Shown in pieces: positions 14,064-21,335 of a DNA stretch of 64,000 nucleotides. The notes under the pieces are model-generated. The model saw only the letters and a list, made by a program, of their open reading frames with translations. It was not told the origin of the DNA and did not search any database. The stretch's first letter is position 1. The number at the start of each line of letters is the position of its first letter. The stretch comes from Escherichia coli (GTDB lineage: Bacteria; Pseudomonadota; Gammaproteobacteria; Enterobacterales; Enterobacteriaceae), in the NCBI RefSeq assembly GCF_003334815.1, contig NZ_QOWO01000016.1; one strand, given 5' to 3'. The translations under genes were made by a program, and so were the position numbers.

Positions 14064-15108
14064 ATTTCAGCGCCCGACGCTGGCAGAAAATATCAGTATG
14101 CTCCGTAACGATTTATTCGCCAGGCTGGACGTCAGCGACACGCTCCGGCGCATGGATGAAGACGTGCGGGCAAAGGTGTATGCGGCGGCGCTGCATACGG
14201 TTTACGGTTACATCGATTATCTGGCAATGAACATGCTGCCTGACCTGTGCGATGAGTCCTGGCTGGCGCGACATGCTGCGATGAAACGGTGTCCGCGCAA
14301 GGGGGCCACGTCTGCCAGCGGGTATATGCGCTGGGAAGGTGTCAGCGATGGCCTGAAGGTGACCGCCGGGAGTGTTATTCAGCGCGATGACCTGGTTCAG
14401 TACACGGCAACTTCTGATGCAACCAGCTCAGGTGGAGTCCTGCGCGTGCCGATCGCCTGCTCAACTGCAGGCGCGGTCGGTAACGCTGACGACGGTACGG
14501 CATTAATCCTGGTCACGCCGGTGAATGGTCTGCCGTCTTCCGGTGTGGCAGATACCCTGACTGGCGGATTCGATACTGAAGATCTGGAAACGTGGCGCGC
14601 CCGCGTCATTGAGCGGTATTACTGGACGCCGCAGGGCGGGGCTGACGGGGACTATGTCGTCTGGGCTAAAGAAGTGCCCGGCATTACCCGCGCATGGACA
14701 TACCGTCACTGGATGGGAACGGGGACTGTCGGTGTGATGATTGCCGGCAGTGACCTGATTAATCCCATTCCGGAAGAATCAACGGAAACGGCGGCAAGAC
14801 AACATATCGGGCCACTGGCCCCGGTGGCAGGCTCTGATTTGTATGTGTTCAGGCCGGCGGCGCATACGGTGGATTTTCATATCCGCGTGACGCCGGACAC
14901 ACCAGAAATACGGGCTGCCATTACCGCGGAGTTGCGTTCGTTCCTGCTGCGTGATGGTTATCCGCAGGGAGAACTGAAGGTATCGCGTATCAGTGAGGCG
15001 ATTTCCGGTGCGAACGGGGAATACAGCCATCAGTTGCTTGCACCGGCGGACAATATCTCCATTGCAAAAAATGAACTGGCGGTTCTGGGGACGATTTCAT
15101 GGACGTGA
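14050..15108 (+). CDS. baseplate J-like protein
   Basis: 352-aa ORF; synteny and size. Confidence 0.8.
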
Positions 15109-15683
15109 CAAACGATGATTACATCCGTCTGTTGTCGGCACTGCTGCCGCCCGGTCCGGCGTGGTCAGCCAGCGATCCGGCGATTGCCGGTACGGCACCG
15201 TCATTAACCCGTGTTCATCAGCGTGCGGATGCCCTGATGCGGGAGCTGGATCCGCGCACCACCACCGAACTGATAAACCGCTGGGAGCGTCTGTGCGGCC
15301 TGCCGGATGAATGTATTCCTACAGGGACACAGACCCTTCGCCAGCGCCAGCAACGGCTGGATGCGAAGGTTAACCTGTCGGGTGGCATCAACGAGGATTT
15401 TTATCTTGCACAGCTTGCTGCCCTGGGCAGACCAGATGCTACCATCACGCGATACGACAAAAGCACGTTCACCTGCTCATCGGCCTGTACTGACGCGGTG
15501 AATGCGCCGGAATGGCGGTATTACTGGCAGATCAACATGCCAGCCGCCACCAACACCACCTGGATGACATGTGGCGATCCCTGTGATTCCGCACTGCGTA
15601 TCTGGGGCGACACCGTTGTCGAATGTGTGCTTAACAAACTCTGCCCGTCGCATACCTACGTAATTTTTAAATATCCGGAGTAA
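15099..15683 (+). CDS. tail protein (Mu gp48-like)
   Basis: 194-aa ORF overlapping J-like gene; precedes tail fibre. Confidence 0.7.
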
Positions 15684-15686
15684 TCC

Positions 15687-16367
15687 ATGCATCGTATAGA
15701 CACGAAAACCGCGCAGAAGGATAAGTTCGGCGCGGGTAAGAACGGTTTTACCCGTGGTAACCCCCAGACTGGCACGCCTGCCACCGATCTGGATGATGAC
15801 TACTTTGATATGTTGCAGGAAGAACTCTGCAGCGTGGTGGAGGCATCCGGTGCCAGCCTGGAGAAGGCGCGGCACGACCAGTTGCTTACCGCGCTTCGTG
15901 CGCTGCTGTTAAGCCGCAAGAATCCGTTTGGCGATATCAAATCGGATGGCACGGTGAAAACGGCTCTCGAAAACCTTGGTTTGGGAGAAGCGGCAACGAG
16001 GAACGTCGGAACGGATACCGGGCAAGTACCAGATATGAGTAGTTTTACAACGGGGTACTCTGGAGCAGCAGACTGGCCGAATAGTAAATCTGGATGGAGT
16101 AAGGGGCCGGATGGGGTAATTACACAATGGGGTATTTTCGGTTTCCCCGTTGGACAGACAGGGACGAATGTTGTTTTCCCGCTACCTTTCCCCGCGCGGG
16201 TCGAATCAATTACACTGACAATGGCAGATATCCAGGAGTCTCTGCTTTCTCCAGCAACCATGCCTGCTTATGGAGTTAACTCAACTGGTACTTCAAGAAC
16301 GGGTTTTACAGCCCGTATGTCAGGCGCCGGTGGGTTTAATCTTTGCTATATAGCGAAAGGGAGATAA
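15687..16367 (+). CDS. tail fibre protein (constant N-terminal part + currently expressed variable C-terminal part)
   Basis: N-terminus [26 protein letters not shown]... is a conserved side-tail-fibre N-terminus; recombination site lies inside the gene at 15970..15990. Confidence 0.75.
15970..15990 (+). repeat. gix/hix-like inversion crossover site (left), AAACC-TT-GGTTT core
   Basis: 21-bp sequence whose 20 of 21 positions recur as an inverted repeat at 17856..17876; lies inside the tail fibre ORF at codons for LGLGE. Confidence 0.6.
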
Positions 16368-16371
16368 CAGA

Positions 16372-16815
16372 ATGAATAAAGTTAAAAGTGTTTACAGCCC
16401 GTCCGAAAATGCAATCTACAACGCAGCGCTATATGAAAGTTATATCAAGGAGGGGACATGGCCGCAGGATGGTATTGAAATCAGCGATGAGGATGCTGTC
16501 AGATTTAATGGGGGAAATAAGCCAACAGGAAAAATGCTGGGAATGGTTTCAGGGACCCTTGCATGGGTTGATGAGCCGCCGCTTTCACCAGAACAGAAAA
16601 TATCAGATGCAGAAAACATGAAAGCCACATTTCGTGCAAAAGCTGACAGTGAAATATCCTGGCGTCAGGATGCTGTTGATGCTGGTATCGCAACTGATGA
16701 AGAAACTTCAACTCTCACCCAATGGAAGAAATACCGTGTGCTGCTGATGCGTGTTGATACTTCAACAGCACCCGATATTGAATGGCCTACGCCTCCGGCA
16801 GTCCAGGCCAGATGA
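16372..16815 (+). CDS. tail fibre assembly protein (orientation currently expressed)
   Basis: 147-aa ORF right after tail fibre; C-terminal WPTPP motif shared with the opposite-strand paralogue (WPGLP). Confidence 0.8.
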   Translation: MNKVKSVYSPSENAIYNAALYESYIKEGTWPQDGIEISDEDAVRFNGGNKPTGKMLGMVSGTLAWVDEPPLSPEQKISDAENMKATFRAKADSEISWRQDAVDAGIATDEETSTLTQWKKYRVLLMRVDTSTAPDIEWPTPPAVQAR

Positions 16816-17389
16816 CGTCCGGCGCTGTGCTGGTATCTGTTGCCGTCACCGCGTCAATGTAATCCAGCACGGCGTTAAGTCGGGTTGTTTCTGCCGGCGT
16901 CAACTTCCGTCCGGCCTGTAATTTCAACTGAATCAGACTGATGGAAGCCATTGCAGCATCAATCAGATACTGGCGCTGTGCTTCTGCCGCTTCTACTGCG
17001 GCGCTATGCTGTGCCTCAGTATCCGTCACCCATTTCTCACCATCCCATTTATCGTATGGCGTTAATGGGGCGATAGTGGTTGTATTATCAGGGTAATCAC
17101 CCGGAGCTGTGATTTCTTTGGCGTCTCCCGTTTCGGTGCTATAGACAATTTCACCACGATGGTCTGACACATATTCCCATGATTTTAAATCCATAGAACG
17201 GCAGATAGCATAACCCGCCTTATATGTGCCAGGTTCATCCAGACAGGAATATGCAGGGATACCGACACCAATGGCAAGATATTCATTTGAAGTAGAAATA
17301 TATTCCCGAGTTTTACCATCATAGTTATAGACGGTAATATTCCCCGCCTTCGTGGCAATAAGCTCGCTATTTAATACGGCGTTATCCAT
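16787..17389 (-). CDS. tail fibre assembly protein (alternative, inverted orientation)
   Basis: 200-aa ORF on opposite strand inside the invertible segment, convergent with the + strand assembly gene. Confidence 0.8.
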   Translation of the reverse strand: MDNAVLNSELIATKAGNITVYNYDGKTREYISTSNEYLAIGVGIPAYSCLDEPGTYKAGYAICRSMDLKSWEYVSDHRGEIVYSTETGDAKEITAPGDYPDNTTTIAPLTPYDKWDGEKWVTDTEAQHSAAVEAAEAQRQYLIDAAMASISLIQLKLQAGRKLTPAETTRLNAVLDYIDAVTATDTSTAPDVIWPGLPEA

Positions 17390-17870
17390 TATGCAGCCCT
17401 CACGATATAGTTAAATGCAATATTTCGTGGACGGGTTTCACTCCCGCCAGTATTACCGATACTCCCTCGTGAATGAAGTGTCGGTGATGGGATCAGACTC
17501 CCTCCTGTATTTGTGGCATCAAGTCCCCGTCCTTGTGTGTATGTCTTTTTGAAAATCGTAGCCAGTTCCCATTCATCTTTTGTGTCGTAACCATCATTGG
17601 CAACAACAATATGGCGGTGTTTTTCCAGCATCCCTGTCTGAATGCTCAATAAAACACGTCCTGCATCAATACCGCGCCCGTCATCCCAGCCACGAATAAA
17701 CTCACCACGTAAATCAGGCAATTTATTTGTCGGATAAGCCTTTGCCAGTTCCGGGTATTCTTCAGCAGAAAAAGCCGCACCGTTGCATTTCAGCCAGCCT
17801 GTTGGCGGTGTGGCTGAAGGCCATGGAACAGGCACACCAACAGGTAATGCAGAGCCTTCTCCCAAACCAA
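17389..17870 (-). CDS. alternative tail fibre variable C-terminal segment (promoterless; expressed after inversion)
   Basis: minus-strand ORF reading from the right crossover site; translation contains VGLGE at the junction matching LGLGE of the + strand fibre. Confidence 0.7.
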
Positions 17871-17876
17871 CGTTTA
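17856..17876 (-). repeat. gix/hix-like inversion crossover site (right)
   Basis: reverse complement carries TTGGTTTGGGAGAAG, identical to 15976..15990. Confidence 0.6.
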
Positions 17877-17936
17877 TGAAAATGCAGAAATAACGAGCAA
17901 ATGGCATCATTCCTGCTTTTGTCAGGGAGATCTACT

Positions 17937-18491
17937 ATGCTTATTGGCTATGTACGTGTGTCAACAAATGACCAGAACACAGATCTACAACGTAATGCGC
18001 TGAACTGTGCAGGATGCGAGCTGATTTTTGAAGACAAGATAAGCGGTACAAAGTCCGAAAGGCCGGGACTGAAAAAACTGCTCAGGACATTATCGGCAGG
18101 TGACACTCTGGTTGTCTGGAAGCTGGATCGGCTGGGGCGTAGTATGCGGCATCTGGTCATTCTGGTTGAGGAGTTGCGCGAACGTGGCGTTAATTTTCGC
18201 AGCCTGACGGATGCTATTGATACCAGCACACCGATGGGGCGTTTTTTCTTTCATGTGATGGGTGCCCTGGCTGAAATGGAACGAGAACTGATTGTTGAAC
18301 GAACAAAAGCTGGACTGGAAGCTGCTCGCGCACAGGGACGAATTGGGGGACGTCGTCCCAAACTTACACCAGAACAATGGGCGCAGGCCGGGCGATTAAT
18401 TGCATCAGGCGTTCCTCGCCAGAAGGTGGCGATCATCTATGATGTTGGTGTATCGACACTGTATAAGAAGTTTCCGGTCGGAGATAAATGA
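17937..18491 (+). CDS. DNA invertase, serine recombinase of Gin/Pin/Hin family
   Basis: 184 aa starting MLIGYVRVSTNDQ (catalytic Ser motif); GGGAG RBS; C-terminal HTH; adjacent to invertible segment. Confidence 0.9.
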   Translation: MLIGYVRVSTNDQNTDLQRNALNCAGCELIFEDKISGTKSERPGLKKLLRTLSAGDTLVVWKLDRLGRSMRHLVILVEELRERGVNFRSLTDAIDTSTPMGRFFFHVMGALAEMERELIVERTKAGLEAARAQGRIGGRRPKLTPEQWAQAGRLIASGVPRQKVAIIYDVGVSTLYKKFPVGDK

Positions 18492-18590
18492 AACCGCAGG
18501 CTCGTCGTATGCAAGAAAGTGCTGCGGCTGGCTGGTTAACTTCCGATAGTGAGAGTATTGAATGATTTCCAGTCGTTATCGATTTTACGT
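18489..18590 (+). repeat. direct repeat copy 1 (~100 bp) at left edge of cargo region
   Basis: TGAAACCGCAGGCTCGTCGTATGCAAGAAAGTGCTGCGGCTGGCTGG... recurs at 21775..21877 with a handful of mismatches. Confidence 0.7.
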
Positions 18591-18849
18591 ATTTTTTGCA
18601 TGAGATGATTTGAACGCCCTAGCACCAACCGTTCATGATTGCACGCCACTGTCTCTAGAACTGCTATGAGCATGAAGCCGCTGTTCAAACTAAGAATTTA
18701 TATGGCACTAACAGAAAAAATGTTACATATATGTTGAGCTTTAACGCAACATAGACATGTTCTATAGTTTGTGTCTCACCACCAGTTGAAAAAAAACGAA
18801 AATAGATTAACAATGTTCAGAAGAAACCTTCATAATAGAAGAGGTATAA

Positions 18850-19104
18850 ATGGGTAAGATTATTCGGTGGATGCTTTTTTTTGTCGGATTATTTTCCGTT
18901 GCATATTCAATATATAAATATCAACAATCTCCGCAGAGTTTATTTTACATAATCGGTGCTATAGGAACACTTTTATCTGCTACATGTGGTTTACTTGAGA
19001 TAAAAAGCAAGAAATCGAATGGCAGTATAACTGCTGGCGACAACTCAAATATCGTTGTCATTAATGGTTCAGAAAACACATCAAAAATAAAAAATAGAGG
19101 GTGA
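18850..19104 (+). CDS. small two-helix membrane protein (84 aa), unknown family - cassette 1 gene A
   Basis: ATG with AGAGG RBS ~7 nt upstream; two hydrophobic helices (res ~5-22, ~31-50) then polar tail containing GDNSNIVVINGSENT; hand-counted GC ~30-35%. Confidence 0.6.
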   Translation: MGKIIRWMLFFVGLFSVAYSIYKYQQSPQSLFYIIGAIGTLLSATCGLLEIKSKKSNGSITAGDNSNIVVINGSENTSKIKNRG

Positions 19105-19106
19105 TT

Positions 19107-20042
19107 ATGTTTGATAAAGAGGTTAACTTAGGAGACAACTCAAACGTAGTAAAAACAGAAGGGAATAACAACACAACAATAATAAATAATTTTGATGAGA
19201 AGTTTATAGGTCACGTTGTAAGATCCATGCTTTATGAAAGTATGCCTTCCTTTCAAGAAGAAGCTAGAAAAAAGATAATTGCGTCAACTGATGAATACAT
19301 TAGAGAGCTAATATCTGAGTTAGTAATTCAAAAAACAGATGCAGATACATTAAACCAAAAACTATCAACGCCTGACGTTCAATACTCTCTTTTTGAATCA
19401 GCTAAATGTTTTGCAAAAAATCCAGAAAGAACAGCAAAATCAACTCTGTTAAATTTAGTTGTAAAAAAAATAAATGAATTGGATGGAGATCATGAAGAGC
19501 TTTCCTCTATCGATCTGGCAATAAACGTCGCTACAAAACTTAGCGTAAAGCAAATAAGGTATATATCTTTAATATACTATATTAAAGATATTGTAAAAAT
19601 ATCACAAGATAGTGCCGGCGCTTATTGCATAATAGATCCTTCAAAAGATACAACAGAAGAAGTTGACGATTTCTTTTTATTCCCAAATGATATAAAAAGG
19701 AACAAGCAGGATGTTTATGATCTTTATATCGATCTATATAACAATCAAATGGATGTTGTATTTAAAGATGAAGAGATTGGCCCAGTTGATTATAGTATGC
19801 TTATAGCATTGGGTTGTATCATTCAACCTGCATTCCCTCAGCGAACATTTGTACAAAATGTAAAGAAAAGAACAGGATTAGATTTAAACGACAGCGAACA
19901 AAAATTAAAGCTATCGACATTCATTGAGAAAATAGAAAAAGCTATAGAGATAGATTCTGTCGATTATATAGTATTAACTACGGTTGGTAGACAAATAGCT
20001 AACGCCTATATATCAACAAGAATGAGATTAGTTAACTTATAA
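19107..20042 (+). CDS. 312-aa soluble protein of unknown family - cassette 1 gene B
   Basis: ATG at 19107 with AGAGGG 6 nt upstream, 2 nt after gene A stop (ORF track start 19101 is an upstream GTG); N-terminus contains GDNSNVVKTEGNNNT; hand-counted GC ~27%; followed by hairpin terminator. Confidence 0.65.
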   Translation: MFDKEVNLGDNSNVVKTEGNNNTTIINNFDEKFIGHVVRSMLYESMPSFQEEARKKIIASTDEYIRELISELVIQKTDADTLNQKLSTPDVQYSLFESAKCFAKNPERTAKSTLLNLVVKKINELDGDHEELSSIDLAINVATKLSVKQIRYISLIYYIKDIVKISQDSAGAYCIIDPSKDTTEEVDDFFLFPNDIKRNKQDVYDLYIDLYNNQMDVVFKDEEIGPVDYSMLIALGCIIQPAFPQRTFVQNVKKRTGLDLNDSEQKLKLSTFIEKIEKAIEIDSVDYIVLTTVGRQIANAYISTRMRLVNL

Positions 20043-20445: not shown

Positions 20446-20805
20446 ATGTTAACGCCGTTTGGTAAGACAGTAAGAAAAATGCGCATAGACTTGGGGCTTA
20501 CGCTTAAAAGCATGGCTGAGGCTATGGGCATGACCTCGTCTTATCTTTCAGCGATCGAAACTGGTAAAAGGGCGGTCACTAAGCCCGTGCTTGATAGCAT
20601 CATTAGCTATTTTAATGCGGATGAAAAACAAAAAGAAAAGCTTATCAGTGCAGCTCGTGACTCTCAGCAGTCAGTAGAGATCAGCTTGTCAGGTAAGAAT
20701 GGCCACGCTCGTGAAGTCGCAATTGCGTTCGCTCGTAGTTTTGATGAATTAAATGAAGAAGACTTCCGTAATTTACGACAGATTTTGAATCGAAAACAGC
20801 AGTAG
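20446..20805 (+). CDS. XRE-family helix-turn-helix transcriptional regulator
   Basis: 119 aa; N-terminal HTH region (LGLTLKSMAEAMGMTSSYLSAIETGKR) typical of XRE/Cro-C1 repressors. Confidence 0.8.
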   Translation: MLTPFGKTVRKMRIDLGLTLKSMAEAMGMTSSYLSAIETGKRAVTKPVLDSIISYFNADEKQKEKLISAARDSQQSVEISLSGKNGHAREVAIAFARSFDELNEEDFRNLRQILNRKQQ

Positions 20806-20813
20806 GAGGCGGC

Positions 20814-21335
20814 TTGAGCGGACAAGATTATCGTGTACCTCCGCAGAATCGTGAATCAATACGTTCTATCGTCACATCTCTGCGGAGCGCATTTGGTATT
20901 ACTGGGCTTAAATTCCCTGTAATGGAGGTAATTGAGTTCGCATTGCCTCAGTTGATCCCGGATTTTGAGTTCCACATTGGTGGCATGAAAGAAATGGGAG
21001 AAACGCATGGTCTTACGTACCCACAGGAACATTTATTGATTCTGCGCGAAGACATTTACGAAGGCGCTTTGAATGGGGTAGGGCGAGATAGGATGACTGC
21101 CGCGCATGAATTGGGTCATCTTCTTATGCACAGGAACATCGCATTTGCTCGTTCTGCCCCAGGGGTAAAAATCCGCCCTTTTGAGAGTAGTGAATGGCAA
21201 GCTAAATGTTTTAGTGGTGAGTTATTAGTGCCGGCTATGCATGTCAGTATTTTAAAAGGTATGACGGCTGAGGATGTTGCTAAGGCATGCGGAGTTTCAT
21301 TAGTGGCAGCGCGTTATCAGCTAGACAGAATGTAA
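20814..21335 (+). CDS. ImmA/IrrE-family zinc metallopeptidase
   Basis: 173 aa; TTG start 4 nt after TAGGAGG; HEXXH motif (AAHELGHLLMH); immediately downstream of XRE gene, the classic HTH-peptidase pair. Confidence 0.8.
   Translation: MSGQDYRVPPQNRESIRSIVTSLRSAFGITGLKFPVMEVIEFALPQLIPDFEFHIGGMKEMGETHGLTYPQEHLLILREDIYEGALNGVGRDRMTAAHELGHLLMHRNIAFARSAPGVKIRPFESSEWQAKCFSGELLVPAMHVSILKGMTAEDVAKACGVSLVAARYQLDRM

Follow-up and report, generated by a model that had tools for sequence, protein, structure and literature searches.

The window analyzed here, a stretch of 64,000 nucleotides from an Escherichia coli contig (NZ_QOWO01000016.1), contains a tail-fibre gene whose 3' part lies within a segment of DNA flanked by inverted recombination sites and followed by pinE, a gene coding for a serine DNA invertase. 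Upstream of this locus there are Mu-type baseplate genes, a sheath gene, a tape-measure gene and a HK97-type head module, and downstream of it lies the chromosomal prfC-osmY-deo region, which places the window over the right-hand portion of a prophage of E. coli. This prophage, located in the chromosome upstream of prfC, combines a HK97-type head with a Mu-type contractile tail. The locus is, with little doubt, the P-segment/PinE DNA-inversion switch of an e14/SfV-like prophage. It belongs to established biology as a member of the Hin/Gin/Cin/Pin family, and the switch is already known: it is specifically the e14 P-segment/PinE system, described in the cryptic prophage of E. coli K-12 (Plasterk and van de Putte 1985, cited in PMC4272514), and not merely a Gin/Pin-like element.

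The invertible segment extends from position 15977 to position 17869, that is, 1,893 bp from crossover to crossover. Its left boundary is inside the tail-fibre gene (15687-16367, + strand), whose current form is an open reading frame (ORF) of 226 residues. Codons 1 to 97 (15687-15976, + strand) constitute the constant head of the fibre and the region 15978-16367, on the same strand, codes for the current tip. Residues 1-102 of the fibre match PHROG tail-fibre families, and a Gp53-like C-terminal domain (Pfam Gp53-like_C) occupies residues 141-225. The fibre gene is followed by that of the assembly chaperone of the current (P-side) cassette (16372-16815, + strand), a protein of 147 residues assigned to Pfam Caudo_TAP (1.2e-32) and to phrog_188 (tail fiber assembly). 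On the - strand are found the alternative, stfE-type fibre tip (17389-17868), which carries a Phage Tail Collar domain and belongs to phrog_523 (tail collar fiber), and the tfaE-type assembly chaperone of this alternative cassette (16787-17389), with 200 residues and a Caudo_TAP match of 1.6e-30. The segment is therefore constituted by two convergent cassettes, each consisting of a fibre tip and its own Caudo_TAP chaperone, and the two tips differ in their C-terminal domain, Gp53-like_C in one case and Collar in the other (4.5e-15 on the fibre fused in silico). No NCBIfam family was matched by the fibre and chaperone proteins.

The segment is bounded by an inverted repeat whose arms (15971-15990 and 17856-17875) are 20 nt long and 95% complementary, with 19 matches out of 20. 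The initial annotation had placed this repeat at 15970-15990, within the fibre gene, and reverse-complemented at 17856-17876; both placements are correct, but the match over these coordinates is 19 of 21 positions rather than the 20 of 21 proposed. The two mismatches of the 21-nt comparison correspond to the outermost base and to one base of the core, which reads AAACC-TT-GGTTT in the left arm and AAACG-TT-GGTTT in the reverse complement of the right arm. The functional units are two 26-bp sites in inverted orientation that show a 12-2-12 anatomy, in which two imperfect half-sites of 12 bp surround a 2-bp core. The left site, pixL (15964-15989), is composed of CTCTCGAAAACC, the crossover dinucleotide TT (15976-15977), and GGTTTGGGAGAA, and the right site, pixR (17857-17882), of TTCTCCCAAACC, the crossover dinucleotide AA (17869-17870), and CGTTTATGAAAA. 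The inner half-sites of pixL and pixR are perfect inverted copies of each other and the outer half-sites differ; the central dinucleotide is equal in both sites, since the AA of pixR is the TT of pixL inverted. When this locus and the Mu gix sites were compared, half-site positions 8-11 were AAAC in all eight half-sites. Codons 93-101 of the 226-residue ORF coincide with pixL, which encodes the ...ENLGLGE... peptide of the fibre. Both sites are identical to those of the K-12 e14 P segment at 26 of 26 positions.

With up to three mismatches allowed, the 19-nt repeat pattern occurs at only two places in the window, on opposite strands; the expectation from shuffled sequence is 0.04, and none of 100 shuffles contained two matches. 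A search of the window for additional recombination sites, as in a multi-site shufflon, yielded none beyond these two, and the element is therefore a simple two-state switch and not a shufflon like Min. Near-matches to AAACCNNGGTTT at positions 5456 and 63463 lack flanking half-site sequence and were discarded as unrelated. A repeat of 20 bp that encodes a conserved peptide (NLGLGE) common to both fibre forms could also be coincidental, or simply reflect the presence of two facing homologous fibre genes, with no recombination involved. However, the repeat is organised as 12-2-12, like Mu gix, and has AAACC at half-site positions 8-12, an invertase gene lies next to it, and the breakpoints of naturally flipped relatives (see below) fall exactly in it. 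The low shuffle expectation and the position of these breakpoints rule out a chance repeat, and the explanation as a whole, already at odds with the inverted junctions found in public genomes and with the flipped L007 (see below), has a practically negligible probability.

The pinE gene (17937-18491, + strand) adjoins the right site, outside the segment, and is intact. Its product, of 184 residues, contains a Resolvase domain (residues 3-135; 1.1e-51) and an HTH_7 domain (residues 138-180; 7.3e-14), matches the Gin structures 3UJ3 and 4M6F from end to end (1e-93), and conserves the catalytic Ser9 within MLIGYVRVSTNDQ. It is identical to K-12 PinE in 176 of 184 residues (95.7%; 8 substitutions) and to Mu Gin in 141 of 180 (78%); its matches in NCBIfam are all below the curated cut-offs. 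The serine invertase gene that had been proposed directly beside the segment is thus borne out by both domains and by Ser9, and the ORFs found between the sites likewise confirm that a + strand fibre C-terminus with its assembly gene faces a convergent pair on the - strand.

A recombinational enhancer is predicted in the 5' end of pin, at 17959-18021. Here the degenerate Fis motif KNNYRNNWNNYRNNM is matched twice, by the 15-mers at 17959-17973 and 18007-18021, which start at gene positions 23 and 71. The two Fis-like sites are 48 bp apart and occupy the same gene positions as in Mu gin; 96.5 bp separate the pixR crossover from the centre of the proximal site. Pairs with such spacing appeared in 0.75% of the shuffles and three times in the whole window. 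Invertases of this family require an enhancer to which Fis binds. In the Hin system, the enhancer is 65 bp long, has a Fis site at each end, and is located inside hin, at a distance of about 100 bp to one hix site (PMC3798978).

Several results bear on the inversion of the segment. Inversion in silico maintains the reading frame of the fibre gene and renders a fibre of 256 residues that ends in the collar tip. The junctions of both states were sought as contiguous matches in public complete E. coli genomes. The left junction predicted for the inverted state (head plus collar tip) is present in 514 genomes with 98-99% identity, and the left junction observed in the window (head plus this gp53-like tip) in 24 genomes (best identity 99.5%). 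The right junction predicted for the inverted state, in which the reverse-complemented gp53-like tip abuts pin, was found in 16 genomes (best identity 99.0%). The P-side cassette allele of the window therefore exists in both orientations among these genomes (24 vs 16). Relative to conserved flanks, the segment is flipped in loci L003-L007. In four of them (L003-L005 and L007) the flanks are colinear with the window and the interior is reversed, the breakpoints being inside the 20-bp repeat, and the outer half-sites CTCTCGAAAACC and CGTTTATGAAAA stay in place, as predicted by an exchange at the central dinucleotide. The closest flipped case is L007, whose baseplate region is 98.7% identical to that of the window and whose segment is reversed. 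Both orientations of the e14 P segment are known to coexist in clonal K-12 cultures (PMC4272514), and its inversion is driven by PinE and, in trans, by PinQ (PMC12529663). The proposal of a Gin/Pin-type invertible fibre segment is thus supported by the sites, the intact invertase, the in-frame fusion and the presence of both junctions in public genomes, and a given assembly captures one arbitrary orientation of the segment.

It could be argued that, despite the intact appearance of the sites and the gene, inversion has ceased in this strain, for instance because pin is not expressed. A single orientation is seen in the window, a promoter scan recognised no pin promoter, and degraded versions of the element do exist, such as that of phage SfIV, in which an insertion sequence (IS) element is present in the segment and the invertase is missing. 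However, such a frozen relic is very unlikely: both sites are indistinguishable from those of the active e14 system, PinE is full length and separated from the active K-12 protein by 8 substitutions, the genomes mentioned above include both orientations of the same cassette allele, and further invertases of the Pin family are able to act in trans (PMC12529663).

On the basis of family knowledge, we infer that the P-segment/PinE switch would operate as follows. PinE dimers would bind the two 26-bp sites and the host protein Fis would bind the enhancer in the 5' end of pin, so that, on supercoiled DNA, the PinE-bound sites and the Fis-bound enhancer would form an invertasome. Each subunit would then cut with its Ser9 at the central TT/AA dinucleotide, one pair of subunits would rotate 180 degrees, and religation of the DNA would leave the 1,893 bp inverted. 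The first 97 codons of the fibre gene, presumably the head that attaches the fibre to the baseplate, would remain fixed behind the late operon, and the remainder of the fibre would be exchanged together with its dedicated chaperone. The captured orientation would give the 226-residue fibre with the gp53-like tip and the 147-residue chaperone, and the other orientation would give the 256-residue fibre with the tail-collar tip and the 200-residue TfaE chaperone. Switching in the lysogen would lead, upon induction, to a lysate containing particles of two receptor specificities. The occurrence of inversion itself is taken from the literature on the near-identical e14 system, and the switch is presumably active in this strain, probably depends on Fis, and would be expected to modify host range.

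Several points weigh against this interpretation. The two orientations are documented across genomes, and the window of this strain holds only one of them. The left end of the prophage is outside the window, and the phage may therefore not be inducible. In a consensus promoter scan of positions 15000-19000, neither pin nor the fibre operon could be assigned a promoter. Synonymous conservation between pin and Mu gin is not in excess in the enhancer (10 of 20 vs 53 of 115 codons; p = 0.81), so that the prediction of the enhancer draws solely on motif, spacing and position. Finally, the two tips are only presumed to recognise different receptors.

The - strand pair had been described in the initial annotation as convergent and promoterless. 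Its convergent orientation is evident, and the second attribute is neither confirmed nor refuted: in the promoter and terminator scan of 15000-19000 site counts were not above chance, and no convincing - strand promoter was found. Nor is the pair devoid of an ORF of its own, since the ORF of the - strand tip crosses pixR up to an in-frame ATG at 17910, located outside the segment in the spacer upstream of pin. This run-on ORF codes for 173 residues in the present orientation and for 143 after inversion. Its leader of 18 residues, MMPFARYFCIFINVGLGE (17869-17910, - strand), reads across pixR into whichever tip is off, and the ATG at 17910 corresponds to the start of the StfE/StfE2 proteins of PMC12529663. 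The leader, MMPFA(R/C)YF(C/F)IFINVGLGE, and its ATG are maintained in the eight loci examined (8/8). The Prokaryotic Genome Annotation Pipeline (PGAP) annotates the run-on ORF of the off tip as a separate gene, and annotation pipelines in this way call the off tip a separate short "tail fiber protein".

In K-12, flipping of the P segment of e14 has been claimed to produce StfE2 and thereby to inhibit the adsorption of phage T2 (PMC12529663). It could be that the switch also, or mainly, serves the lysogen, the off tip being produced as a leader-tip protein that blocks adsorption of superinfecting phages. This rather unlikely role, minor and compatible with a function in host range, would be in agreement with the run-on ORF in both orientations, with the conservation of its leader and start codon, and with the report on StfE2. 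However, the P-side tip of the window is a different allele from K-12 StfP, without DNA match and with protein similarity in the head only, and the published StfE2 effect is therefore not transferable to it. The best - strand promoter candidate scores 9/12 in a scan whose site counts equal chance, and an AGGA sequence abuts the first ATG, which is a poor spacing. Furthermore, the leader is located within the short spacer upstream of pin, where its conservation may reflect pin regulation or constraints on the site, Mu also possesses such a run-on ORF, and a role in host range is sufficient by itself in an apparently complete prophage. Slightly less likely still is that, in an intact and inducible prophage, one flip does two jobs, changing the host range of the virion and, in the lysogen, the leader-tip protein started at ATG 17910. 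If true, this would constitute a phase-variable receptor blocking against superinfecting phages and would extend the StfE2 claim made for the cryptic e14 to a different tip allele.

Directly downstream of pin, the region 18850-20042 of the window contains an ORF for a hydrophobic protein of 84 residues and a gene of the LPO_1073/Vpar_1526 family (313 residues) that had no match in PADLOC. In relatives, this slot is occupied by mcrA (K-12), by a gene for a LEM-3-like GIY-YIG nuclease or by one for a TrlF-like ATPase, which suggests a variable slot for cargo or defence genes at the end of the prophage. PADLOC searches with the genes downstream of pin gave regulator-type matches only. A helix-turn-helix (HTH) and ImmA/IrrE metallopeptidase gene pair (20446-21335) is similar to the CapH/CapP defence regulators (PADLOC 3.6e-10 and 4.9e-11) and is not adjoined by any recognised effector. 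The closest prophage relative (L001) lacks this pair, but strain 510016 (L009) has it and carries, upstream of it, a reverse transcriptase gene and a SLATT gene disrupted by IS1.

The locus is a clean and complete example of a textbook switch, and its significance lies mostly in correct annotation. RefSeq genomes annotate the system as pinE/tfaE, and the isolated phage SKA5 has the same architecture. The likeness to the e14 element of K-12 is very close. The gene order is identical, ymfQ-stfP-tfaP-tfaE(-)-stfE(-)-pinE, and the reference K-12 orientation is that of the window. The fibre head differs from that of K-12 StfP at two residues, TfaE is identical to K-12 TfaE in 174 of 200 residues, and the tfaE/stfE side as a whole is 88-92% identical in DNA. 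However, the segment is longer than that of K-12 (1,893 vs 1,827 bp, crossover to crossover), and no DNA of K-12 matches the region 15997-16752, which comprises the tip of the P side and the greater part of its chaperone. The P-side chaperone resembles K-12 TfaP only in the C-terminal 74 residues. Judging from the alignments, the P-side cassette is an allelic variant, which is also present in about 40 other complete genomes. Since stfP-side cassettes vary between strains, they bear on the prediction of prophage host range. The element of the window is located next to prfC, and not next to icd, and accompanies an apparently complete late region, from terminase to baseplate, which is deleted in e14. 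The comparison shows that the P segment of K-12 e14 is the remnant of a presumably working host-range switch of SfV/e14-like prophages.

Some details of this comparison concern the origin of the cassettes. The two chaperone genes, on opposite strands, overlap by 29 bp at their 3' ends, so that part of the stretch 16753-16815 is coding on both strands. From 16753 onwards, a position within the motif DTSxAPDIEWP conserved at the C-terminus of the P-side chaperone, the sequence is again similar to K-12 e14, and cassette alleles may thus be exchanged by homologous recombination between this motif and the left site. The collar tip (17389-17868) is a mosaic with respect to K-12 StfE (L002, 6120-6606): about 85 N-terminal and the last 17 or so residues are near-identical and the middle portion, of about 70 residues, is unrelated, a pattern that suggests the swap of an internal receptor-binding block.

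Related elements are found in other phages. In E. coli Eco_23-2667 (L006, 2358-4960), the same segment and a pinE gene 97% identical to that of the window are located behind a baseplate gene set of a different type, and the part of the constant fibre region common to both loci is limited to 79 bp (100% identity), which is evidence for movement of the switch as a whole from one phage type to another. The locus of Shigella phage SfIV (L011, 3188-5912) contains a fibre gene and two chaperone genes, the second one truncated by the IS element, and the absence of an invertase leaves its orientation frozen. The tfaE/stfE cassette is also 86-90% identical in DNA to that of P2-like phages of Escherichia, Klebsiella, Salmonella and Citrobacter, some of which carry a DNA invertase; Escherichia phage pro483 is an example of these P2-like phages. 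However, the fibre heads and baseplates of the P2-like phages, and those of the P1 Cin and p15B Min systems, are different.

The G segment and Gin invertase of phage Mu share with the P segment a fibre head that is constant, a site encoding NLGL within the fibre gene, two convergent cassettes of tip and chaperone, an invertase gene just outside the segment, and sites of 12-2-12 anatomy with AAACC ends. The Mu segment is larger (about 3 kb), with a head of 169 residues and fibres of 504 residues, whereas here the head has 97 residues and the fibres 226 and 256. In addition, Mu has TC/GA as its central dinucleotide, against TT/AA in the window, and the tips are unrelated in sequence. With the Hin/H segment of Salmonella enterica, the P segment has in common the 26-bp sites and, presumably, the Fis enhancer and the rotation of subunits (PMC3798978); the predicted enhancer spans 63 bp at 96.5 bp from the site, figures close to those of Hin (65 bp and about 100 bp; PMC3798978). 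However, Hin flips a promoter to switch between flagellins and its gene is inside the segment, whereas in the switch described here the 3' coding ends of a phage fibre gene are swapped and the invertase gene lies outside.

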